From Candidatus Poribacteria bacterium (GTDB lineage Bacteria > Poribacteria > WGA-4E > WGA-3G): a stretch of 64,000 nucleotides of DNA. Position numbers and translations under genes: made by a program. Each line of letters opens with the position of its first letter. Position 1 is the first letter of the stretch. Below are positions 1 through 52,807 of this stretch, piece by piece. The notes below the pieces were generated by a model. The model was not told where the DNA came from. It saw only the letters and a program-made list of their open reading frames with translations, and searched no databases. Location of the stretch: contig JAPPBX010000117.1 of NCBI GenBank assembly GCA_026702755.1, forward strand, positions 28,578-92,577, written 5' to 3'.

Positions 1-480
1 GCTTTCGTGTCGTTGCATCCGTTTCGGTGCAAGAACACGGTCAATGATGACTGCTTGAAGCGACCAACCGATGAAGACTGCCGCGATTGGCGTAAAAAGC
101 AGAGACAGTTGGCTATGCGTCAGGAACGCTGGCAGTGCGGTTCCGGCACCACCGAGGGCTGCCCACAAGAAGCCGATAGCGAATAGATTCGCAAATCCGT
201 AAAACACGGTCAACGATTGTGATGAATGGCTGTACCCAACGACCATCATATATGACATACTTCCGCCGAAAGACCAACCGATTGCTCCAAACAGCGCGAA
301 GTAGTGAACATGCCGCCACCAATCCTCTCGCCCGGAGAGTAAAGCGATTGCTATCGCTCCGAGTGCACCCGCGAGTGCCGCACCATATTCATGTCCAAAG
401 TTACCGCGTATCCCCCATCCAACACAGACCGACAAACCACACAAAAGTACCATTTGCCACGGGATGATTGTTATGTCCAT
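1..480 (-). CDS. Integral membrane protein, N-terminal 160 aa (gene runs off the window start)
   Basis: Absent from the ORF track because there is no stop in the window. The minus-strand frame is open from 480 to 1. ATG at 480-478, with GGAGG (revcomp of 488-492) 7 nt upstream. Translation MDITIIPWQMVLLCGLSVCVGWGIRGNFGHEYGAALAGALGAIAIALL... is strongly hydrophobic. Track ORFs 113-322(-) and 219-467(+) are off-frame shadows. Confidence 0.6.
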   Translation of the reverse strand, partial: MDITIIPWQMVLLCGLSVCVGWGIRGNFGHEYGAALAGALGAIAIALLSGREDWWRHVHYFALFGAIGWSFGGSMSYMMVVGYSHSSQSLTVFYGFANLFAIGFLWAALGGAGTALPAFLTHSQLSLLFTPIAAVFIGWSLQAVIIDRVLAPKRMQRHES

Positions 481-37700: not shown

Positions 37701-38724
37701 ATTTGATGTCCGCAAGCAGTCAACGCTCCTTATTACGCCTTTGCGCGAGCTTCAACTCGGTCTCAATCTCAATACGAACATGGTTTGGCACGACCGGGAT
37801 CAGGAAAATAATAAGAACATTATAAGGGGGGTTTACAGTTTTAATGGAACTGCTACGAACACCCTGTTCCGTATCTATAATATCAGTTATATCCCCGGAA
37901 TGCGAAGGTTGCGACACGAAATACAATCCTCACTCCGGTTTAATTATCAGCCCGCTGTCGATCAAGATGAGAGCCTCTATCCTTTCGGTCCCAGTACCTA
38001 TTTCTATGAACGGAAGAGACTCACGTATAACTTCAATACGAACTTTGAAATCAAGACCCGACGGAGTCAGTCGGCACACCGTATCTTCTATTTTGATACA
38101 CGGCTTACCGCCGATTTCACTGAATTCGATCCTTTGTATGAGCGTCAATTTGAGCCTATTGAGAGTGATTTTACATTCGTTCCGCTTCCGAGTCGAAACC
38201 TAAACATGACCTTTCGAGTTACGCACGATCCGAATCCGCATCCGGTTGATGGCAAACAGTTCAAAGTCGTTGGAATCCGTACCAATATCCGTTATACTCG
38301 GCAGTCGTGGAACGTAAGTATCGGTAACTCGTTTAGTAAACGCCATACATCGAGACGCGCGTCGCGGTCTCTCACTGCCACCGGTCGGTACCGTTATAGC
38401 CAAAACCTTGAATTCGATCTGAGTCTCATCTATTATCCTATTGATCGGCAGTTTTACTCACAACGTCTCACAGTTACACGTAACCTCCACGATTGGAGTC
38501 TCCGAATTTCTTGGAGTCGAGTCGGTATTGACCGCGGCGATCCGCGTTACAACAACGTCCGCCAAGACTTTACATTCCAAGTGAGTCTGATTCAAGAACC
38601 CGCGATTTCCATGGGTGTCGGTTACGACGCGACGACTGAAACTTGGGGACTCCGAACCATACCAGCTGGCATGCCTTACAACGCATTTGGCTCCGGCAAT
38701 TCACTCGGCAGGTCTTACTTCTAA
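34732..38724 (+). CDS. lptD: LptD/OstA-like outer-membrane LPS-assembly protein with an inserted parvulin PPIase domain and a long acidic low-complexity segment
   Basis: OstA_N-like [38 protein letters not shown]...[12 protein letters not shown]...GGFPLFYFP. Insert with [12 protein letters not shown]...[21 protein letters not shown] (35.8-36.1 kb). Asp/Glu-rich region 36.5-36.9 kb. Beta-barrel-like C-terminal part ending ...NSLGRSYF. The start could instead be ATG 34846 ([13 protein letters not shown] signal). Confidence 0.7.
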
Positions 38725-38734
38725 TATCTACCCT

Positions 38735-40300
38735 ATGAGCACCAACCTCGCAGAAATCGAAAGTAGACTGTGGAGCGCTGCAGATGAACTCAGAGCCAAC
38801 TCCCGCCTCAGAGCCTCAGAGTACTCAACGCCTGTGCTTGGGCTTATCTTCTTACGGTATGCAGATCATAAATTTACACAGGCTGAACAAGAAATCGGTC
38901 GTGAAGCCGCTACAAACACGCGCAGACGTACCGATCCAAAAACGCAATATCAGGCTCGCGGTGTATTTTATCTGCCAGAGAAAGCGCGGTTTCAGTACCT
39001 CCTGAGTTTACCGGAGGGTGAAAACATCGGACAAGTTGTTACGGATGCGATGAAGGCAATAGAAGAAGAAAACCCTCAAGTTGATGGTATCCTACCCAAG
39101 ACTTACAATCGGCTTGAAAAGAACACGCTTCTTGAACTCCTCCGTATCATGGAACAGATCCCTATGGACATTGAGGGCGATGCTTTCGGAAGGGTTTACG
39201 AGTACTTTCTCGGCAATTTCGCCATGAGCGAAGGACAACGCGGCGGAGAGTTTTTCACCCCCACCTCCCTTGTTAAACTTATCGTTGAGATTATCCAACC
39301 TTTTCACGGTCGTATTTTTGATCCCGCTTGTGGCTCTGGCGGCATGTTCGTCCAGAGTGCGGCGTTCATTAGCAACCACAAGAAAAATGGAAACCCCGGA
39401 GACATCAGCATCTACGGCGTTGAACGCGTCGCCGAAACTATCAGGTTGTGCAAAATGAACCTCGCAGTCCATGGACTTGAAGGCGATGTCAAGCAAGCCA
39501 ATAGTTACTATGAGGATTCGCATAACTGTCTCGATAGATTTGACTTCGTCATGGCAAATCCACCCTTCAATGTTGATCGCGTAGACATGGAACGCATTAA
39601 AGACGATCCTCGATTTCCGTTCGGTATGCCACGCGTTGACAATGCCAACTATCTCTGGATTCAACTTTTCTATAGTGCGCTCTCCGAATCCGGGCGCGCA
39701 GGCTTTGTGATGGCGAATTCCGCCGCCGATGCCCGTGCCTCCGAACTCGAAATCCGCACACAGATTATCAAATCGGGGTCAGTAGATGTTATCGTCAGTA
39801 TCGCTTCAAATTTCTTCTACACTGTTACTTTACCCTGTACCCTCTGGTTTTTCGACAAGTCAAAACCGGATAGTGACAGACGTGATAAGGTATTGTTTAT
39901 TGATGCACGCCACCTCTATCGGCAGGTGAGCCGCGCACATCGGGAATTCACACCTTTGCAGCTTGAATTCCTTGCCAATATTGTGAGACTCTATCGTGGA
40001 GAAATTCCTGAAAATCAACACGACAGCGCGGATTTCCTTACCACGAAATTTCCCGATGCAGCGTATATTGATGTTCCCGGACTTTGCAAGGTGGCTACCG
40101 TCGCTGAAATTGAAGCGCAAGGATGGAGTCTCAACCCCGGACGGTATGTCGGTGTTGCTGAACAGACGGCTGACGATTTTGATTTCGCTGAAAGATTTGG
40201 GGAACTCAACGAAGAATTGGAGGTACTAAATGCTGAGGCACGTCAATTGGAGGAACGGATTGCTGAAAATGTTGTAAAGATTTTGGAGGATACGGTATAA
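38735..40300 (+). CDS. hsdM: Type I restriction-modification system, DNA methyltransferase subunit M
   Basis: I prefer ATG 38735 ([25 protein letters not shown].., the HsdM_N pattern). [11 protein letters not shown] (motif I) and NPPFN (motif IV). It starts only 10 nt after the lptD stop. Confidence 0.92.
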
Positions 40301-40319: not shown

Positions 40320-40649
40320 ATGAGTGAAGAAGTAAAAGTTGAGGAAAGTTCTGGGAATGTGTTTCTGGATATAGGTTTCTCTGAAGAGGAGGCTGAATAT
40401 GAACAGCTAAGGTCGTACCTTGCCTTTCATGTTTATAGTCTTTTTGAGGAACTAAAATTGACTCATGCAAAAGCGAAGGCACGTTTTGGAATTGATGCAG
40501 ATGATGTATCTCGAATACAAAAGGGAGATTTCCATCTTTTTACCGTGCCACAGCTGCTTTTACTCTTGAAGCGGTTGAGCCGCAATATTGAAATTCGCAT
40601 TACACCTTCGGATGAAAAAGTTGGGCACCTGCAAGTTGTTTCAACTTAA
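40320..40649 (+). CDS. XRE-family HTH protein (HTH_37/antitoxin-like)
   Basis: SSGNVFLDIGFSEEEAEYEQLRSYLA......LTHAKAKARFGIDADDVSRIQKGDFHLFTVPQLLLLLKRL..NIEIRI matches the pattern of PF13744-type antitoxins/regulators. No toxin-like ORF is adjacent. Confidence 0.65.
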   Translation: MSEEVKVEESSGNVFLDIGFSEEEAEYEQLRSYLAFHVYSLFEELKLTHAKAKARFGIDADDVSRIQKGDFHLFTVPQLLLLLKRLSRNIEIRITPSDEKVGHLQVVST

Positions 40650-40663
40650 GGAAGCGTTTTTTA

Positions 40664-41437
40664 ATGCTACTCAAGGATCGCGTTTGCATTGTAACCGGTG
40701 GAAGTTCAGGCATCGGACGAGGTATTGCACTCGAATTTGCCCGTGAGGGTGCGCGTGTTGCCGTTGTTGATAGGCAAGAGACACCCCTTCGCGGCAAGTA
40801 TCACGAAACCGATGTCACAACACCAACCGTTGCAGAGATCGAAAAACTCGGCGCGCAGGGTATCTTCCTCCAAACCGATGTCGCTGACGAAGCGCAGGTC
40901 GCTGACGCTATCCAGCAAACTGTCGAACACTTTGGTGGACTTGATATTCTCGTCAATAACGCCGGTATCCACATCCCGGGTGGCGCGCAGGAGATTTCAA
41001 TCGCTGACTGGGACAAGGTTGTGGGTGTCAACCTCCGCGGTGTTTTCGTCGCGACGAAACTCGCTATTCCTCACCTAAAGCAATCGAAATTTGGAAGGAT
41101 TATCCAGATCGCCTCTGTCCATGCCTACGGAGGCGGCGCGGGACCTGCGTATGCCCCCGCTAAGGCTGCGCTCGTCAATATGGTTCGAGATACGGCGTTA
41201 GAAATCGGGCAATTCGGTATAACCGTCAATGCTATCTGTCCCGGTTATATTGAGACAGCAATTCAGGATTACCTCACCCCGGAACAGATCCAAGAGGCGT
41301 TGGAAAAGACAGCCTTGCCGCGCTTCGGTCTACCGAGAGACATCGGACGTGCCTGTGTCTTTCTCGCCTCCGACGATGCGGAATGGGTCACCGGTGCTTC
41401 TCTGCTCGTTGATGGTGGATTCGCTGCAGGCGTGTAG
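40664..41437 (+). CDS. SDR family oxidoreductase
   Basis: TGGSSGIGRGIA, NNAG, and YAPAK (Y-x3-K). Confidence 0.85.
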   Translation: MLLKDRVCIVTGGSSGIGRGIALEFAREGARVAVVDRQETPLRGKYHETDVTTPTVAEIEKLGAQGIFLQTDVADEAQVADAIQQTVEHFGGLDILVNNAGIHIPGGAQEISIADWDKVVGVNLRGVFVATKLAIPHLKQSKFGRIIQIASVHAYGGGAGPAYAPAKAALVNMVRDTALEIGQFGITVNAICPGYIETAIQDYLTPEQIQEALEKTALPRFGLPRDIGRACVFLASDDAEWVTGASLLVDGGFAAGV

Positions 41438-41454
41438 AAAAACTGTATTTCTTC

Positions 41455-41538
41455 TGTAGGAGCGAGTTTTACTCGCGACTGTTGTAGGAGCGAGTTTTAC
41501 TCGCGACTGTTGTAGGAGCGAGTTTTACTCGCGACTGT
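41455..41538. repeat. Perfect 28-bp tandem repeat x3 (family A hairpin unit)
   Basis: tgtaggagcgagttttactcgcgactgt at 41455, 41483 and 41511. Each unit carries a GCGAGT-TTT-ACTCGC hairpin. It begins 18 nt after the SDR stop. Confidence 0.9.
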
Positions 41539-41549
41539 TATAGTAGCCC

Positions 41550-41655
41550 GTAGGTTGGGTTGAACGGAATTTTACTGAAAACCACATAGACAAGATAACC
41601 TCAAATTCGTCAAGAAATCTGAGATCACCAAGAGACGGGTGAAACCCAACGCATT
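41550..41655. mobile_element. Truncated family B MITE (left half)
   Basis: GTAGGTTGGGTTGAACGG at 41550-41567 and the internal GTGAAACCCAAC block at about 41638-41649. No right TIR. Confidence 0.5.
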
Positions 41656-41707
41656 TTCTGATCGCTGATGGAAACCGCCCGCCGACAGCCCATTAAAGGA
41701 AAACATA

Positions 41708-42505
41708 ATGCAAACAAACCCATGGGGAACAATCCGTTTTACAGATAAAGTCGCATTGATAACCGGTGGTGCCTCCGGTATCGGCAGAGCAACGGCGAAC
41801 CGCCTTGCAGCTGAAGGCGCACAGGTTATCATCGCTGATAACAACGCCGAGATGGCGCGTAAGGCAGTCGCCGAAATCCAAGAATCAGGTGGGAAGGCAC
41901 TTTTTATAGAAGTTGATCTTGCTGATGATGACAGCGTTATCGCCGCTGCGCGGACTGTTGCCGAAAAGTTTTCTGCCCTTCATGCTCTTGTCAACAACGC
42001 CGCTATCTTGAGAAGCGGCAAAATTGAAGACGGCGCGTGGCTACCCAATTGGGAACCCGAAACCGCGATTGGTCTCCGAGGCTGGGTGCTGATAACACAA
42101 CATCTGTTACCACTACTGAAAAAAGAGGATGCCGCGATTGTTAACCTCTCATCGGAAGGCGGATTCCTCGGTAGACCTGGACAGTGGGTCTACGATGCAA
42201 TCAAAGCGGGACTCGTCTCTCTCACGAAAACAATGGCTACCGAATTCGTCGAATACGGTATCCGAGTCAACGCTATTGCGCCCGGGTGGATTGTTACGGA
42301 GATGCATTTCGGTAAAGCACCTGACCCTGCTGCTCGTAAAAAGGAATTAGAGGAAACCGCGATCAATTCGTGTATCATGAAACGGCTTGCTAAACCAGAG
42401 GAGGTTGCTGCCGCGATCGCTTTTCTCCTCAGCGAAGATGCTTCTTACATCACAGGACAGACGCTACACGTTGATGGTGGTCGTTGGGGAATGTCCGTCG
42501 GTTGA
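41708..42505 (+). CDS. SDR family oxidoreductase
   Basis: TGGASGIGRATA and NNAA. The expected Y-x3-K position reads YDAIK. Confidence 0.85.
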   Translation: MQTNPWGTIRFTDKVALITGGASGIGRATANRLAAEGAQVIIADNNAEMARKAVAEIQESGGKALFIEVDLADDDSVIAAARTVAEKFSALHALVNNAAILRSGKIEDGAWLPNWEPETAIGLRGWVLITQHLLPLLKKEDAAIVNLSSEGGFLGRPGQWVYDAIKAGLVSLTKTMATEFVEYGIRVNAIAPGWIVTEMHFGKAPDPAARKKELEETAINSCIMKRLAKPEEVAAAIAFLLSEDASYITGQTLHVDGGRWGMSVG

Positions 42506-42532
42506 TGATTACTGACAGCTATTATTTCACTT

Positions 42533-43066
42533 ATGCCAACTAAAACCCACACCACAGCCGTCGTTCTCATCCCACCAGAAACGGTGCAGCCGCTTATCCA
42601 AGCCATCCGCCAGATTCACGACCGGAACTTCAGGCGATGGATGCCACACATAACATTGCTTTATCCGTTCACAGAACGTCGCGATTTCGCCTCTGTTATC
42701 CCCGCGCTCATAAAAACCGCGGAACAAGTGTCACCTGTTTCCGTTGAGTTTACGCGCTTTGACGCTTTCAAACACCGCAAATCGTGTACGATGTTCCTTG
42801 TTCCAGAACCCGAAGACGAGATCGTGCGATTACACAGTGTCCTGTTGGAACATCTACCAGACTATGACGACACGGCGCGGTTTGCCTGTGGATTCCATCC
42901 ACATCTCTCGGTCGGGCAATTCCAGCACCGTTCCCTGCCATCCGAACAACAGCGACTCCAAACCGAATGGCAACCGGTCCGGTGTGAAATAGAAGCAATT
43001 AGTCTCATTTATCGCTCCCCTGAAACAGATGATAAATTCGTCGTCGCAGAGCAGTTCGATTTCTGA
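42533..43066 (+). CDS. 2H phosphoesterase superfamily protein (LigT/2'-5' RNA ligase-like)
   Basis: Two HxT/S motifs: PHITLLYPF and HPHLSVGQF, with the spacing typical of 2H enzymes. Confidence 0.7.
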   Translation: MPTKTHTTAVVLIPPETVQPLIQAIRQIHDRNFRRWMPHITLLYPFTERRDFASVIPALIKTAEQVSPVSVEFTRFDAFKHRKSCTMFLVPEPEDEIVRLHSVLLEHLPDYDDTARFACGFHPHLSVGQFQHRSLPSEQQRLQTEWQPVRCEIEAISLIYRSPETDDKFVVAEQFDF

Positions 43067-43073
43067 CATCAAT

Positions 43074-43102
43074 TTGCAAATCGAAGTGCAGCGCATTATA
43101 AT
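43074..43102 (+). promoter_or_regulatory. Sigma70-like promoter
   Basis: TTGCAA (43074-43079), 17-nt spacer, TATAAT (43097-43102), about 100 nt upstream of the GTG at 43203. Confidence 0.6.
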
Positions 43103-43202
43103 ATTGTAGGTCAAATTAACTTGAGGTCGTATCGTTTTTCTTTGGTTTAGCGGAGCGGTCCGACAATAGCATATCAATCTTAATTCAGAAAAGGAATTAG
43201 TA

Positions 43203-44387
43203 GTGAACACAAAAACTTTTATCTCGATTTTCCTAACCTTAATCGCAATCTTAATCATATCCGTTTCTGGATGCGAACGAATACAGCAGGTTATCCTATC
43301 CGAACCCGTTCCCTCAGACACGGTGTCCACCGTCAAAGTTGGCGTAATTCAACCCTCGAGACTGGCTCCCAATTTCACCAAGGGCGCAGAACTTGCACGT
43401 TCTCAGATTAACGAGGCTGGTGGACTGCTGGGAATGCAGGTCGAATTTATCGTCATGGATAATCAACGCGAGCGGGACTTCCCGGATGCCGCGGAAAGTG
43501 TCCGCATCGCCCAATTACTGATTGAACAAGAGGGGGTTGTCGCAATCCTCGGGCCCCTCCTCTCAACGAATTCCATGCAGGTCGGACCGGTTGTTTCTCT
43601 GCTTCGGCGACCCATAATTACCGGTTCCTCCGGTGAGAAAGTAACCTCAACAGGCGAATTCGTGTTTATTACGGTGACTCCGTCCTCGGTTCAGGGCATG
43701 AAAACAGCGCAATTCGCATTGGATCCGACAGAACGCAACGCGAAAACCGCCGCAACCATCCGTCAGGCAGGCGATGTATACTCCGGTGCAGTTGCGGATG
43801 CCTTTGAGGAGAATTTCCAAAAGCTCGGTGGGGAACTCGTCGCGCGTGAGGTCTATCAACACGGCGATAGAGACTTCACCGCGCAGTTGACAAAGATTAA
43901 AGCCGGGGCACCGGATGTGCTTCTCGTTGCCGGTTTTAGCCCAGAAATTCCGCTGTTTGCATTGCAAGCGAGGAATATGGGGGTTGACGCAACTTTTATC
44001 GGGACCAACGGTTGGGATGAACCCGACAAACTCCTCGGCACTTTAGATGACAACACACCGTTAGAAGGTTCTTACTTTACGAGAGGTTTCAATATCGAAT
44101 CTGTCAGTGCAGCTGCTTTCGTTAAAGCCTACACCGCAATGTATATGGAGCCACCGGACGGTCCCTCGGCGTGGGGCTACGATGCGATGTCGTTACTGGC
44201 ACTCGCCATCGAAAACGCTGAGACATTGGAACCTGATGCCATTCGGGATGCCTTGGCGAACACGACTGACTATCAAGGTGCAACGGCTATCTCCCATTTT
44301 GATGAGAATCGGCATCCTGTCAAGTACCTTGAACTCTACACAATTCGCAATGGGAAGATTGAACTCTACAAGGTTATTACGCCGTAA
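43203..44387 (+). CDS. ABC transporter substrate-binding lipoprotein (type 1 PBP, LivJ/branched-chain amino acid-like)
   Basis: Lipobox ILIISVSGC. VKVGVIQP.S, GPLLSTNS, and FIGTNGWD, the Peripla_BP_6-like pattern. Confidence 0.75.
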   Translation: MNTKTFISIFLTLIAILIISVSGCERIQQVILSEPVPSDTVSTVKVGVIQPSRLAPNFTKGAELARSQINEAGGLLGMQVEFIVMDNQRERDFPDAAESVRIAQLLIEQEGVVAILGPLLSTNSMQVGPVVSLLRRPIITGSSGEKVTSTGEFVFITVTPSSVQGMKTAQFALDPTERNAKTAATIRQAGDVYSGAVADAFEENFQKLGGELVAREVYQHGDRDFTAQLTKIKAGAPDVLLVAGFSPEIPLFALQARNMGVDATFIGTNGWDEPDKLLGTLDDNTPLEGSYFTRGFNIESVSAAAFVKAYTAMYMEPPDGPSAWGYDAMSLLALAIENAETLEPDAIRDALANTTDYQGATAISHFDENRHPVKYLELYTIRNGKIELYKVITP

Positions 44388-44914: not shown

Positions 44915-46306
44915 ATGAGCAAGCAGAGCGAAGAAATTATGAAAAAAGAAGATAAAAAACGAGATCCAATGCCGCCTCCCGATGCAACACCAGACGAGAT
45001 CGGCGAATTTTGGGATACACATAGCCTTGCCGATTATTGGGATGAAACCCAAGAAGTAGAAGTTCAGGTTAACCTAAAGCCACATAAAAGAGAAAACAGG
45101 ATGAGAGACACAATTCGTTTTGGCGATTTTGTTGAAGTTAATCCGCGCATCCGGTTAGAGAAGGGAAAAGAGTATCCGTACATTGAAATGGCTGATGTTA
45201 ATCCAGGCAATGGATTTGTTTTCCCACAGAAAAAACGGGTTTACAAAGGTGGGGGTTCGCGGTTTCAATCTGGTGATACGCTTTTTGCGCGTATTACACC
45301 TTGTTTAGAAAATGGGAAGATCGTCCGATGCATGCATACAAGTAATGGACCTTGTTTTGGATCGACTGAATTCTTTATCTTTCGTGGTAAGCCCAATGTA
45401 TCAGACTCAACTTATATATTTTACTTGGCTCTGAGCCCTATGATTCGAGAACCTGCTGTGAAAAGTATGACGGGGGCATCAGGACGGCAGCGCGCTATAT
45501 TGTCATCCGTTGAAGACATCCATGTTCCAGCCTATTCTCTCGCAACCCAACGCAAAATCGCCGCTGTCCTCTCTGCCTACGATGATCTCATCGAAAACAA
45601 CACCCGCCGCATCAAAATCCTTGAAGACATGGTACAAACCCTCTACCAAGAATGGTTCGTCCATTTCCGATTTCCCGGACATGAGAACGTTCCTATGGTA
45701 GAATCACCGTTGGGCCCAATACCGGAAGGGTGGGCGATTAAGAGTTTTGGCGAGGTTTCCCTTAACTTTGATCGCCAGCGTAAGCCACTATCAGGACGGG
45801 TTAGGTCAACAATGCAAGGCGAATATCCATATTATGGTGCTGCTAAAGTCTTAGACCATATTAATGATTATCTATTTGATGGAAGGTATTTGTTGATTGG
45901 AGAGGATGGTAGCGTTGTTACTGAAGAAGGAAAACCTGTACTGCAATTAGTAACAGGTAAGTTTTGGGTGAATAATCATACGCATGTTATCCAAGGAAAG
46001 GCACCAATTTCGACAAATTTTCTTTATGTGTTTATGTCTAATGTAGTTATTTCAGGTTATGTTACAGGTACTGCACAGCCAAAGATTAACCAGCAAAACT
46101 TGAATAGAATTCCGGTCATTATGCCTCCACAGAGTCTATTAGAAAAATTTAACCAAATGGTTGAACCTTGTTTTGACAATATCGTTGCCTTAAACCTTAA
46201 AAGCACAAACCTCAGTGAAACCCGTGACCTCCTCCTCCCCAAGCTCATCTCCGGTGAGATTGATATATCCGAACTTGACATTGACACGGCTCCTAAAAGC
46301 AATTGA
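44915..46306 (+). CDS. hsdS: Type I R-M specificity subunit S with a ~60-aa N-terminal extension
   Basis: Two TRD-like halves (FGDFVEVNPRI...GDTLFARITPCLENGK; GWAIKSFGEVS...YPYYGAAKV...NNHTHVI) and conserved helices (IAAVLSAYDDLIENN; TRDLLLPKLISGEIDI). N-terminal residues 20-50 PDEIGEFWDTHSLADYWDE resemble BrnA/CopG-antitoxin N-termini. Confidence 0.88.
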   Translation: MSKQSEEIMKKEDKKRDPMPPPDATPDEIGEFWDTHSLADYWDETQEVEVQVNLKPHKRENRMRDTIRFGDFVEVNPRIRLEKGKEYPYIEMADVNPGNGFVFPQKKRVYKGGGSRFQSGDTLFARITPCLENGKIVRCMHTSNGPCFGSTEFFIFRGKPNVSDSTYIFYLALSPMIREPAVKSMTGASGRQRAILSSVEDIHVPAYSLATQRKIAAVLSAYDDLIENNTRRIKILEDMVQTLYQEWFVHFRFPGHENVPMVESPLGPIPEGWAIKSFGEVSLNFDRQRKPLSGRVRSTMQGEYPYYGAAKVLDHINDYLFDGRYLLIGEDGSVVTEEGKPVLQLVTGKFWVNNHTHVIQGKAPISTNFLYVFMSNVVISGYVTGTAQPKINQQNLNRIPVIMPPQSLLEKFNQMVEPCFDNIVALNLKSTNLSETRDLLLPKLISGEIDISELDIDTAPKSN

Positions 46307-46331
46307 TATATACAACACGACGGTGTATAAT
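46304..46331 (+). promoter_or_regulatory. Sigma70-like promoter overlapping the hsdS stop codon
   Basis: TTGATA (46304-46309), 16-nt spacer, TATAAT (46326-46331). It is followed by AGGAGG and a 19-codon micro-ORF (46360-46419). Confidence 0.5.
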
Positions 46332-46465: not shown

Positions 46466-46705
46466 ATGAGTGGAACCACTGAATTAGCAACTGATCAAGA
46501 AGGATTATCAAAAGATAAGCAGCTGCCCCCGCGTGATACTATAAATCAAACGGATGCTGAACGAAAGGCACTTATGGATTACGCCGAGGCACAACTTCGG
46601 AAGTTATCCGCGTCTCGAGGTTTAGATTGGGATAGAGTGAGCGATGAGGAGCGCATATATTTTGTTGATGACCTCATCCACGAGGACCGCGCGTGCAAAC
46701 GTTAG
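46466..46705 (+). CDS. Small hypothetical protein (79 aa)
   Basis: AGGAAGGAG RBS. MSGTTELATDQEGLSKDK...RGLDWDRVSDEERIYFVDDLIHEDRACKR. I recognise no family. Confidence 0.45.
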   Translation: MSGTTELATDQEGLSKDKQLPPRDTINQTDAERKALMDYAEAQLRKLSASRGLDWDRVSDEERIYFVDDLIHEDRACKR

Positions 46706-46736
46706 CCGTTTACGACACAAGATATCGGAGGAAATC

Positions 46737-46994
46737 GTGCAAGAATCTTCTATCATCCAATACTTTAGTGAGAAAAGTTTTGAGCAAGGCATCGAACAAG
46801 GTAAAAAACAGCAAGCCGTTGAAGCGATCCTCACGGTGCTGGAGGTTCGCTTTCAGACCGATGTCGCCGAGAAACTAAAGCCTTTTCTTAGAGTCATTGA
46901 CGATCTGCAGCGTCTGGATCAGTTAAACCGGGTTGCTGCACGTGCCTCAAACATTAAAGAATTTACGGATGCGCTCTTGAACCTTAAAAACTGA
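46737..46994 (+). CDS. Small DUF4351-like protein (85 aa)
   Basis: GGAGG lies 5 nt before the GTG at 46737. FEQGIEQGKKQQAVEAILTVLEVRFQTDVAEKLKPFLRVIDDLQRLDQL resembles the DUF4351 C-terminal domain of Rpn/PD-(D/E)XK transposase-like proteins. The nuclease part is absent. Confidence 0.5.
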   Translation: MQESSIIQYFSEKSFEQGIEQGKKQQAVEAILTVLEVRFQTDVAEKLKPFLRVIDDLQRLDQLNRVAARASNIKEFTDALLNLKN

Positions 46995-47018: not shown

Positions 47019-48203
47019 ATGGAGATGAAACCTATGTCCGAACAGAAAGCGTTTTTAGAGAAAGTTCATATTAAAAACTACCGTAGTTTACGGAATGTTA
47101 CGCTTCCGCTCAAGTCTCTGACGGTTCTTGTCGGTCCGAATGCAAGTGGGAAATCGAATACTTTGAACGCATTACGCCTTTTCCAGGGGATCCTGAGTGT
47201 TGAAACCCCTCCTACAAAGGCAAATTTTCTCAGAGATCGCCTTTGGGTAGGCGGAGGCGACCACATCACTTGCGAACTACATGCCAAGGTGAAAGAGAAA
47301 TTAGCACAATATACATTGGTGTTTAAAACTAAAGATGAAGATCTTTCTATTGACGAAGAATTATTGGTTAACAGCGTAAAAGTTATCTCAATTCAGAATG
47401 GAGAAGGACAAGTTCAGGATGAAAATAGTAAGAATGCAACGAAATACACATCCAATAAACTCGCTTTGAGATCTGCTGGTGATTATGGACATAAACCTGT
47501 TACGAGTGCGTTAACAGCGTTTATTCAAGGATGGGAATTTTATGACTTTGAACCAAACTACATGCGAACTAATTCTGATAGATCTTCTGTTAAAAAAGAA
47601 ACTCTTGATTCTCAAAAACTTGGTAGCTATGGTACAGGGGTACCGGACATACTCCAGGACTGGTATGAAAATTCGCCAGAGGATTTCCAATACGTTAGTG
47701 AAGCCTTAGCAGCTGTCACGAATATCAATATAGACTACTGCAAAATTGATGGCGGATCCCAACTCTGCCTTCTTGAAGGATATAAGAAACCGATACCTTT
47801 AACAAATGCCTCTGATGGAACATTGCGTCTTCTTGCATATAATACCTTGCTCAATCAATCTAAATTACCGCCGCTGATTACCATTGAGGAACCGGAGCGG
47901 AATTTACACCCTGGTGCCCTGAAGGATATTGCATACATACTTGAGCGTCTTGCTGAACGAACACAGGTGATTATTACTACGCATAGTTCTCAACTCCTTG
48001 ATACCTTCAGTTCTAAGAGTTTATCAGATTCGCTCGGTGTTTTGCTGTTGCGCAACCGCCCCAAACTCGGCACAGAAGTACTCAACATTGAAAATATCCG
48101 TGATAAGCGTGAAGCATTTGCTGACTGGATCGCTGATTTTGGAATCGGCAGTGCGGTTTTCGACAGTGGACTGCTACAAGATCTCATGGAGGAACCGATA
48201 TGA
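47019..48203 (+). CDS. ABC-type AAA ATPase (AAA_21/OLD-ATPase-like)
   Basis: IKNYRSLRNVTL...LVGPNASGKSN (Walker A), SDGTLRLLAY (signature-like), LITIEEPERNLHP (Walker B), IITTHSSQLLD (H-loop). Confidence 0.8.
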   Translation: MEMKPMSEQKAFLEKVHIKNYRSLRNVTLPLKSLTVLVGPNASGKSNTLNALRLFQGILSVETPPTKANFLRDRLWVGGGDHITCELHAKVKEKLAQYTLVFKTKDEDLSIDEELLVNSVKVISIQNGEGQVQDENSKNATKYTSNKLALRSAGDYGHKPVTSALTAFIQGWEFYDFEPNYMRTNSDRSSVKKETLDSQKLGSYGTGVPDILQDWYENSPEDFQYVSEALAAVTNINIDYCKIDGGSQLCLLEGYKKPIPLTNASDGTLRLLAYNTLLNQSKLPPLITIEEPERNLHPGALKDIAYILERLAERTQVIITTHSSQLLDTFSSKSLSDSLGVLLLRNRPKLGTEVLNIENIRDKREAFADWIADFGIGSAVFDSGLLQDLMEEPI

Positions 48204-48763
48204 TAAGCATCCGAATCTGGAGTTTGGAATCTGACCGAGATGCCAAAGCAGTCAAATTTTTGGAAAATGAATTTATCAGATTCAGGCATCTTGGGGATAT
48301 CGCTATCCGAACAGCCGGAAGAAGTACACTTCGCAAGTGTCATAGGAAAGGCACGCCTATAAGCAGCAGCCTAAGGAAGGCGATTGAGCATTATCTCAAG
48401 CAGGATGATTATATTATTTTTATCGTTGATTCCGATCAGCAACGACAGGATGGGTCAAAACCTCTTGCTAATGAGGTTAAACGAATCGTCAAAAATTGTA
48501 ATTTGTCTGATAAGGTGTTTTTCGCGCCCGACATTCAAAAAGACGAATCTGCCATACCAACGCAGTGGCAAGACATCGTTTCGCACTTTCGCTCTGAAGT
48601 TGAAAGTGAGCGCAAAAGGTTTCGGGAGGAGTGGGATAGGACCTTAGCATATTTCCACAATGTCTTTGCCGATATTCCAGAGGAGGAAGTGATGCGTCAT
48701 TTTGAGGAAGCACTTGCAGAGGTGAGACGTGAACGCGCCGAAGCCGCAGATATTCACAAATAA
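48200..48763 (+). CDS. Small Toprim-like protein (DUF4276/RloB-like pattern), overlaps the ATPase stop (ATGA)
   Basis: N-terminal IRIWSLESDRDAKAVKFL (conserved-Glu position) and IIFIVDSD (DxD-like) fit the E...DxD Toprim layout seen in RloB/DUF4276/AriB-type partners of AAA_21 ATPases. Judged by eye only. Confidence 0.45.
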   Translation: MISIRIWSLESDRDAKAVKFLENEFIRFRHLGDIAIRTAGRSTLRKCHRKGTPISSSLRKAIEHYLKQDDYIIFIVDSDQQRQDGSKPLANEVKRIVKNCNLSDKVFFAPDIQKDESAIPTQWQDIVSHFRSEVESERKRFREEWDRTLAYFHNVFADIPEEEVMRHFEEALAEVRRERAEAADIHK

Positions 48764-52761: not shown

Positions 52762-52762
52762 A

Positions 52763-52783
52763 GGCGCGGTTTCAAACCGCGCC
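52763..52783. terminator. Bidirectional terminator hairpin, palindrome family D
   Basis: ggcgcggttt-c-aaaccgcgcc lies between the convergent hsdR and pfk genes. Confidence 0.65.
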
Positions 52784-52807
52784 TGTATTTACTGAAAATC
52801 CTGATTT

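Follow-up and report, generated by a model that had tools for sequence, protein, structure and literature searches.

The stretch of DNA analysed here, 64,000 nucleotides (nt) of contig JAPPBX010000117.1 from a Candidatus Poribacteria bacterium (hereafter the window), belongs to a sponge-symbiont genome and contains a type I restriction-modification (R-M) system; between its genes hsdS and hsdR lie two overlapping genes, which encode an ABC ATPase of 394 amino acids (aa) and a small protein of 187 aa, and which are the subject of this work. Type I R-M systems often carry such embedded genes in the same orientation (bioRxiv 10.1101/2024.01.29.577857). Of the described systems, the closest is HEC-01, a Hma-embedded candidate made up of an ABC ATPase and its TOPRIM partner (HEC-01B) with a reported conserved Toprim metal-binding site; the representative tested was without defence (bioRxiv 10.1101/2024.01.29.577857). 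HEC-03, an ABC ATPase with a PIN protein, does defend, and both of its genes are needed (bioRxiv 10.1101/2024.01.29.577857). In a study from 2026, one HEC-01 representative (cold-seep) and one PDC-S70 representative were reported to protect Escherichia coli B, the latter lowering plaquing 100-1000-fold (PMC12881386). In the MADS system of Pseudomonas aeruginosa, deletion of mad3 or mad4 lowers defence, and removal of the methyltransferase gene mad5 is possible only in combination with removal of mad2 or mad3 (bioRxiv 10.1101/2023.03.30.534895); Mad4 is a DUF4276 protein (PMC12065111). In PARIS, an ABC ATPase holds a Toprim effector and responds to the anti-restriction protein Ocr (PMC11464382).

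Our analysis suggests, with a probability that we place at roughly one half, that the window module is a reduced, lineage-specific derivative of HEC-01 within a type I R-M operon, and that its 187-aa protein is a non-catalytic adaptor or regulator and not a nuclease effector. What is new here is an HEC-01A ATPase beside which only a degenerate Toprim paralogue remains, and this paralogue bears an antitoxin-like tail. An earlier note on this DNA had proposed the two genes as an uncharacterised defence pair. Both open reading frames (ORFs), the overlap of the ATPase TGA with the ATG of the small gene (ATGA, 48200-48203), the motifs quoted and the tight spacing up to hsdR were all found as it described them. 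The system, however, is not uncharacterised, since HEC-01 has already been named (bioRxiv 10.1101/2024.01.29.577857) and one representative has been reported as protective (PMC12881386). Nor can DUF4276 be regarded as a family never implicated in defence, as it includes Mad4 of MADS (PMC12065111), the loss of which lowers defence (bioRxiv 10.1101/2023.03.30.534895).

The first of the two genes encodes, as judged from its sequence, an intact ABC ATPase of the HEC-01A family, in the OLD/PARIS-like group of defence ATPases. In agreement with the ABC/AAA_21-type assignment made earlier, the protein matched Pfam AAA_21 (1.5e-29) and AAA_15 (1.4e-25), and also SMC_N. Its best match in any library was the PADLOC HEC-01A model PDLC04178 (E 1.1e-46, aligned over residues 6-329 and profile positions 1-333 of 399); another five HEC-01A models matched at <=1e-32, and the AriA, mad3, AbiLi, Old and GajA models scored much lower. 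Among solved structures, its nearest relatives are the OLD nuclease 6p74 (2.3e-8), the ATPases of retrons Ec83/Ec78, PtuA and SMC heads. The motifs GPNASGKSN (Walker A), SDGTLR (signature), IEEPERNLHP (Walker B) and TTHS (H-loop) are invariant or nearly so across 76 orthologues, with Walker B always IEEPE, and the median ratio of non-synonymous to synonymous substitution rates (dN/dS) is about 0.21.

The canonical partner of this ATPase is a longer protein of 235-260 aa (the long form), and not the 187-aa protein (the short form) to which the earlier note had assigned that role. A scan of one genome per GTDB species, with the long-form motif as a seed, revealed 80 loci in Poribacteria, Latescibacterota, Anaerolineae, Cyanobacteria, Parabeggiatoa, Desulfobacterales and Gemmatimonadota. 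In 74 of these, the gene immediately upstream of the long form encoded a homologue of the window ATPase; in the remaining six the homologue was displaced or fragmentary (three loci) or missing (three loci: two contig edges and one short fragment). The ATPase and the long form therefore constitute a strictly co-conserved two-gene module. Long forms contain the motifs W.LES.nD, IFV.D.D and ELEAWLL.D, in which E11, D15, D74, D76, E116, E118 and D124 are invariant. The module may lie within a defence island (locus L082, with an Eco57I-like gene, TIR, PemK, an integrase and insertion sequence elements) or stand alone among housekeeping genes (L083); hsdR or hsdS was found nearby in only 20 of the 80 loci, all 20 of them from Poribacteria. 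No long form is present anywhere in the window.

The profile searches suggested in the earlier note succeeded for the ATPase but gave almost nothing directly for its neighbour: the short form did not match Pfam DUF4276 (PF14103), RloB (PF13707) or Toprim at E<=1, and DUF4435, AriB and mad4 were likewise without a match (Pfam, PADLOC). One faint direct match, to HEC-01B, had an E value of 0.027 and covered residues 61-111 only (PADLOC). The ancestry of the protein became apparent when its profile was compared with that of the long forms by hhalign (probability 99.85%, E 1.3e-30). The N-terminal 130 residues of the long forms align with the short form, and the alignment stops near short-form residue 133. 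Among 35 sequences scanned, namely the window protein together with closer short forms and with long-form relatives, PF14103 matched 22 (best 3.2e-8) and HEC-01B matched 23 (best about 1e-8); RloB did not match the window protein and matched two relatives, at about 0.006. Several long forms have a precomputed PF14103 assignment, and long-form relatives score 15-25 bits against this model, the gathering score of which is 30.2 bits. Published work places DUF4276 in the Toprim superfamily and takes the E/DxD/ExE..D residues as the catalytic set (PMC12065111). The short form thus appears to descend from a DUF4276/Toprim-like lineage. The guess made earlier about this ancestry was right, because the long-form relatives match DUF4276 and HEC-01B and DUF4276 is itself assigned to Toprim, and the impression that the protein is not RloB-like was also borne out. 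A profile search of PDB sequences with the long-form alignment produced only sub-threshold Arf-like matches, which probably explain the source label "GTPase SAR1 family protein" of one sequence (P0115); this label was rejected.

The short form is a paralogue found almost exclusively in Poribacteria. We found 294 close homologues at E<=1e-3, of which the top 120 are at least 67% identical, and they come from Candidatus Poribacteria wherever the source names an organism. An exhaustive HMMER search of 1.84 billion representatives recovered only 103 proteins, so the family is small; a metagenome scan with the alignment of close homologues (A1) recovered two loci only. An AF2 model built from A1 was unusable (pLDDT 59), and a deeper alignment (A2) gave a model with a pLDDT of 88. 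In this model a β-α-β-α-β-α-β core (residues 2-110) is followed by a hairpin of two long helices (121-186), the order of elements being β1-α-β2-α-β3-α-β4, with E10 after β1 and D77 and D79 after β3. We refer to the hairpin as module b.

The active site of the short form was examined in 121 close homologues. The motifs IRIWSLESDRDAKAV (E10) and IIFIVDSD (D77, D79) give the Toprim-like E...DxD layout that had been noticed before; it is present in the window copy but is not conserved in the family, a finding that goes part of the way towards the outcome which the earlier note had set as refuting its proposal. Position 10 is occupied by Q (51), E (48), L (15) or V (4), and E10 is replaced by Q, L, V, A or K in 73 of the 121 orthologues; D77 and D79 are each about 88% conserved, and all three residues are kept in only 38, the window copy being one that retains them. 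The first Glu of ELEAW is E in 88 and K in 29 (K114 in the window), and the second Glu, the W and D124 of the ELEAW..D set are gone. The C-terminal half of DUF4276 ("GDTE..GG.G.KEYL...LNP...RN.SL") is also absent, and in its place stands module b, with the sequence "EEWD..L..FH..FADIPEEEV.R.FEEALAEVRRER". The substitutions at catalytic positions are scattered across the tree, and the loss of E10 did not correlate with the presence of the long form or the ATPase. Median dN/dS is nevertheless 0.20 for the short form, close to the values for the long form (0.23) and the ATPase (0.21). Since both window ORFs are conserved in many Candidatus Poribacteria genomes with a dN/dS of about 0.2, they are real genes and not chance ORFs. 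Overall constraint combined with freely varying catalytic positions means that the short form is most simply regarded as a non-catalytic derivative.

Comparison with the known systems places the window module nearest to HEC-01, which it resembles in having two genes, an HEC-01A ABC ATPase followed by a small TOPRIM/DUF4276-like protein. It differs in that its partner barely reaches the HEC-01B profile, lacks ELEAW and the C-terminal half, has a non-conserved active site and carries a foreign helical tail; moreover, the long form is absent and the host system is a type I R-M system, not Hma. In MADS, a related ATPase (PADLOC mad3, 7.6e-26 for the window protein) sits with the DUF4276 protein Mad4 in a methylation-based defence operon. 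However, the window ATPase scores 98.9 bits against NCBIfam MAD3, for which the cut-off is 420, its partner has no mad4 match, the host is a classical hsdMSR system, and the hsdS-hsdR interval has no large gene except hsdR able to encode the mandatory MAD6-8, although these were not searched for by name. PARIS is similar in combining an ABC ATPase sensor with a separate Toprim-family partner (AriA models match the window ATPase at 1.6e-28) and in its functional tie to type I R-M through the Ocr trigger, whereas the window partner is not a DUF4435 protein and is much shorter, and the ATPase fits HEC-01A far better. RloA/RloB and AbiL (AbiLi/AbiLii) are likewise passengers of type I R-M systems, with an AAA_21-type ATPase and the small Toprim-superfamily protein RloB between hsd genes; AbiLi matches the window ATPase at 1.2e-24, but only part of its profile is covered, and RloB (PF13707) does not match the window protein. 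In OLD and Gabija (class 1-2 OLD nucleases) a single polypeptide holds ATPase and Toprim, whereas in the window the ATPase and the Toprim-like partner are separate genes; the GajA and Old models match mainly the P-loop region, and the window operon has no UvrD-like gene (GajB helicase). Membership of PARIS, RloAB/AbiL, MADS and OLD/Gabija was rejected on the grounds of partner genes and scores. HEC-03 shares with the locus the combination of an ABC ATPase and a PIN protein: three relatives (L084, L085 and L090) have overlapping ATPase, short-form and PIN_3 genes, and the window has a PIN-like gene two genes downstream. Yet the window ATPase scores as HEC-01A and not as HEC-03A, a pseudo-Toprim protein and a UPF0175 protein are interposed, and coupling of the ATPase to the PIN protein is an inference.

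The gene order between hsdS and hsdR was compared in 19 short-form loci. In nine Poribacteria loci (among them L018, L019, L021, L022, L024, L025, L035 and L092) the order is hsdS-...-ATPase-long-short-(UPF0175)-hsdR; because the short gene follows the long gene there, the 187-aa protein is a second, paralogous copy. In seven loci (the window, L001, L086, L087, L090, L084 and L085) the ATPase is followed by the short form with no long form. In the other three (L088, L089 and L091) the ATPase has been deleted, leaving a short 3' fragment (L088 and L089) or the last few codons only (L091), and the short form is intact. Its retention beside UPF0175 and hsdR in these three loci means that the ATPase and the short form are not an obligate pair. 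Directly 3' of the short form we found UPF0175 in 14 loci, the overlapping PIN_3 gene in three (L084, L085 and L090) and hsdR in one. This series shows that the ancestral order was ATPase-long-short-UPF0175-hsdR, and, to judge from the sequence at the junction, that the lineage of the window deleted the long gene cleanly, by which the short gene came to overlap the ATPase stop codon. We rejected an origin of the junction in which the 5' ends of the long and the short gene had recombined, as the first codons in the window match short-form and not long-form sequence and the long gene has been removed cleanly.

The interval between hsdS and hsdR is a hot spot with rapid turnover in sister genomes. 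One of these carries two tandem ATPase-long pairs (L020, 8814-12839), another has the long form split into two ORFs (L092, 7247-7991), and in a third (L088, 8888-12058) hsdR is fragmented and the ATPase is replaced by a PIN_3 toxin-antitoxin pair, as is also the case in L089.

The tail of the short form connects it with antitoxin-like proteins. Module b occurs in stand-alone proteins of about 80 aa (P0186, P0213-215), the N-terminus of which, "EPITLEKLLPLI..LP..EREQLR", is that of the window UPF0175 protein; in P0186 this N-terminus is addiction-module-like, and no toxin gene is adjacent to that of P0215. Module b is also fused to DUF433 (P0142, P0183, L015, L020 and L045) and to UPF0175 (P0123, in which a short form is joined to the UPF0175 C-terminus). 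A distinct tail, module c ("DYAEAQLR.L..SRGLDWD...E.R..FVDDLIHEDR.C"), forms the C-terminus of the 79-aa ORF upstream of the window ATPase; P0141 and P0147 carry it joined to a DUF4276/Toprim-like N-domain, and in L027 it follows the long form. In this hot spot, small helical modules have evidently been exchanged between proteins of Toprim-like and antitoxin-like type, and the 79-aa ORF may supply the system with a further component or a docking module. Metagenomes, the source of P0123 as well, also yielded proteins in which the N-terminus of the ATPase is joined to module b (P0175) or a remnant of the ATPase start to a short form (P0136).

According to the reading that we prefer, the reduced HEC-01 derivative with a non-catalytic adaptor, the ATPase would sense an infection cue, by analogy with PARIS, OLD and HEC-03. 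The short form would dock on the ATPase through its Toprim-derived domain, and its antitoxin-like tail would couple the ATPase either to the adjacent UPF0175/PIN effector of toxin-antitoxin type or to HsdR. The output might then be RNA cleavage of the PIN type and growth arrest in place of Toprim cleavage, a step in which our confidence is low. The UPF0175 and PIN-like pair, with its PDC-S70 matches, may be the more active embedded defence element. A bolder extension, which we consider doubtful, would make the short form the founding "pseudo-Toprim" adaptor: a dead HEC-01B/DUF4276 paralogue that kept the ATPase-docking fold and acquired an antitoxin-type hairpin, thereby rewiring the sensor onto the PIN/UPF0175 effector or HsdR, with modules b and c as a docking code that recombines the effectors of embedded defence modules.

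Several observations weigh against the adaptor. We infer its contacts with the ATPase, the UPF0175 protein, the PIN protein or HsdR. Foldseek searches of PDB and BFVD with the model of pLDDT 88 returned nothing significant (best E 0.01 and 0.007, TM about 0.3); the top matches were generic α/β sandwiches, i.e. KaiC, flavodoxin-like proteins and nucleoside deoxyribosyltransferases, and the fold assignment therefore rests on sequence-profile homology and on the published placing of DUF4276 within Toprim (PMC12065111). The first HEC-01 representative tested gave no defence (bioRxiv 10.1101/2024.01.29.577857). Furthermore, the ATPase is under purifying selection without its long partner, which also fits the short form as a working effector, and the window copy may have residual nuclease activity, because it still has E10, D77 and D79.

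These last two points lead to the alternative along the lines of the earlier note, in which the ATPase and the short form make a complete ATPase-Toprim pair active in defence, of the PARIS/HEC-01 type, with the short form as a nuclease effector that serves the type I R-M system as a back-up or anti-anti-restriction sensor. We regard this as unlikely. The catalytic Glu is substituted in 73 of 121 homologues and only 38 keep the triad, which the window copy possesses; E116, E118 and D124, invariant in long forms, are missing together with the C-terminal half of DUF4276. The two genes overlap as ATGA, are both under purifying selection and persist as a pair in diverged genomes (the seven loci listed above), but the short form also persists without the ATPase in three loci, and the true conserved partner of the ATPase is the long form. 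The precedents on which such a pair could draw are the protection reported for one HEC-01 representative (PMC12881386) and the triggering of PARIS by Ocr (PMC11464382).

A second possibility, to which we attach somewhat less weight still, is that the short form, as a pseudo-enzyme, inhibits the long Toprim nuclease or serves as its "antitoxin", acting for example through inactive heterodimers, and that in the window it is an orphan immunity or anti-addiction remnant that has outlived the nuclease, the ATPase working alone or with other partners. Its position immediately 3' of the long gene in nine loci, its relaxed active site as a paralogue and a tail common to antitoxin-like proteins would all suit such a role, and AriB-type Toprim effectors act as dimers. 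However, 54 of the 74 adjacent ATPase-long loci, those outside type I R-M systems, have neither a short form nor a module-b gene, so the long nuclease does not generally need such an inhibitor, and the short form has been held at a dN/dS of 0.2 long after the loss of the long form. Least probable is that the module is decaying and functionless in the window genome, a leftover of an eroding HEC-01 insertion: the long partner has been deleted, a gene remnant lies alongside (46710-46994) and in sister genomes the ATPase is gone or the long form or hsdR is broken up, but neither ORF is truncated, the motifs of the ATPase do not vary, both genes have a dN/dS of about 0.2 at dS 0.5-1.5, and the arrangement is common to genomes diverged to a dS of about 0.5-0.9.

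The features of the locus are listed in Table 1.

Table 1. Genes, domains and candidate signals of the type I R-M locus in the window (positions in nt of the window, or in residues of the short form where stated)
Feature	Position	Strand	Evidence
hsdM, methyltransferase, ORF from GTG	38615-40300	+	ORF; L001 orthologue has HsdM_N, N6_Mtase
hsdS, specificity subunit, 463-aa ORF	44915-46306	+	Pfam Methylase_S 5.9e-21, two stretches
Promoter-like site TTGATA-17-TATAAT, 11/12 match	46303-46331	+	Consensus match only, just 3' of hsdS stop
Conserved 79-aa protein	46466-46705	+	Conserved upstream of ATPase in L001, L061, L086
Gene remnant, C-terminal ~106 aa of a 318-322-aa protein	ORF 46644-46994, homology 46710-46991	+	tblastn/blastp
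HEC-01A-type ABC ATPase, 394 aa, ATG start	47019-48203	+	ORF, motifs, Pfam, PADLOC
Short form, 187 aa, ATG start	48200-48763	+	ORF, motifs, profile comparison
Short form, DUF4276/Toprim-derived N-domain	residues ~1-117		
Short form, helical hairpin (module b)	residues ~121-186		
UPF0175 antitoxin-like protein, 111 aa	48771-49106	+	Pfam UPF0175 4.8e-13; PADLOC PDC-S70 1.9e-7
PIN-like protein, 163 aa	49112-49603	+	PADLOC PDC-S70 4.3e-7; DUF3368 type in orthologues
hsdR, type I restriction subunit, 1053 aa	49600-52761	+	ORF; L001 orthologue domains
GC-rich 10-bp hairpin, possible bidirectional terminator	52762-52784	.	Directly 3' of hsdR stop

The type I R-M system is complete, with hsdM, hsdS and hsdR all present as full-length ORFs. 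The true start of hsdM is probably near position 38735, since its orthologues are 521 aa long, and the hsdR orthologue in L001 has the domains HSDR_N, ResIII, SWI2_SNF2, T1R_D3-like and T1RH-like_C. The short form is separated from UPF0175 by 7 nt and UPF0175 from the PIN-like gene by 5 nt, and the PIN-like gene overlaps hsdR by 4 nt. No convincing terminator was found between the promoter-like site after hsdS and the hairpin after hsdR; the totals of promoter- and terminator-type sites were not above those in shuffled controls. The ATPase/short-form module is embedded in the R-M operon and probably co-transcribed with it; spacing and the two flanking signals agree with the co-transcription with hsdR proposed previously. 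The window PIN-like protein gave no match in the Pfam scan, and its orthologues in L001 and L086 have PF11848 (DUF3368). The gene remnant is 76% identical to intact proteins of L091 (6957-7925) and L092 (5072-6028), over their residues 213-318 only (tblastn/blastp). We take the intact counterpart to be Rpn/YhgA-like (DUF4351-type), from our own reading of the sequence and not from a tool result.

Some further observations concern the remainder of the R-M locus. At its N-terminus, the hsdS ORF is extended by about 60 aa (PDEIGEFWDTHSLADYWDE..., 44915-45100), which show weak similarity to CopG/BrnA antitoxins (PF12441, E 0.029), and the same extension is present in the L001 orthologue (467 aa). 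An HTH_37 gene (HigA-like antitoxin; 40320-40649) lies 3' of hsdM without a Gp49/HigB-like toxin gene; such a toxin gene precedes HTH_37 in L088, L091 and L092, and the window copy looks like an orphan antitoxin. Between this gene and hsdS are four apparently metabolic genes (40664-44387), encoding two short-chain dehydrogenases, a LigT/2H-phosphoesterase-like protein and a periplasmic binding protein. The same four genes are located upstream of hsdM in L001 and L088, and the R-M operon has therefore been rearranged; in L001 two HTH_37 copies flank the metabolic genes and hsdM. The presence of a LigT-type RNA end-healing enzyme beside RNase toxins is curious.

To conclude, few kinds of gene are found embedded in modification-based defence systems as often as HEC-01-type modules, and the data on the activity of these modules conflict. 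Callers of the PADLOC type would miss the window module, because its partner does not reach their threshold. Should the short form be no more than a remnant, the locus would simply illustrate the usual turnover of a defence hot spot. At the same hsdS-hsdR site, within one phylum, the Poribacteria provide a natural dissection series: ATPase with nuclease; ATPase with nuclease and dead paralogue; ATPase with dead paralogue, as in the window; and dead paralogue alone. Comparison of the members of this series could show what the ATPase requires, and whether the part of a non-catalytic Toprim paralogue is to control the system or to divert it towards a PIN effector.

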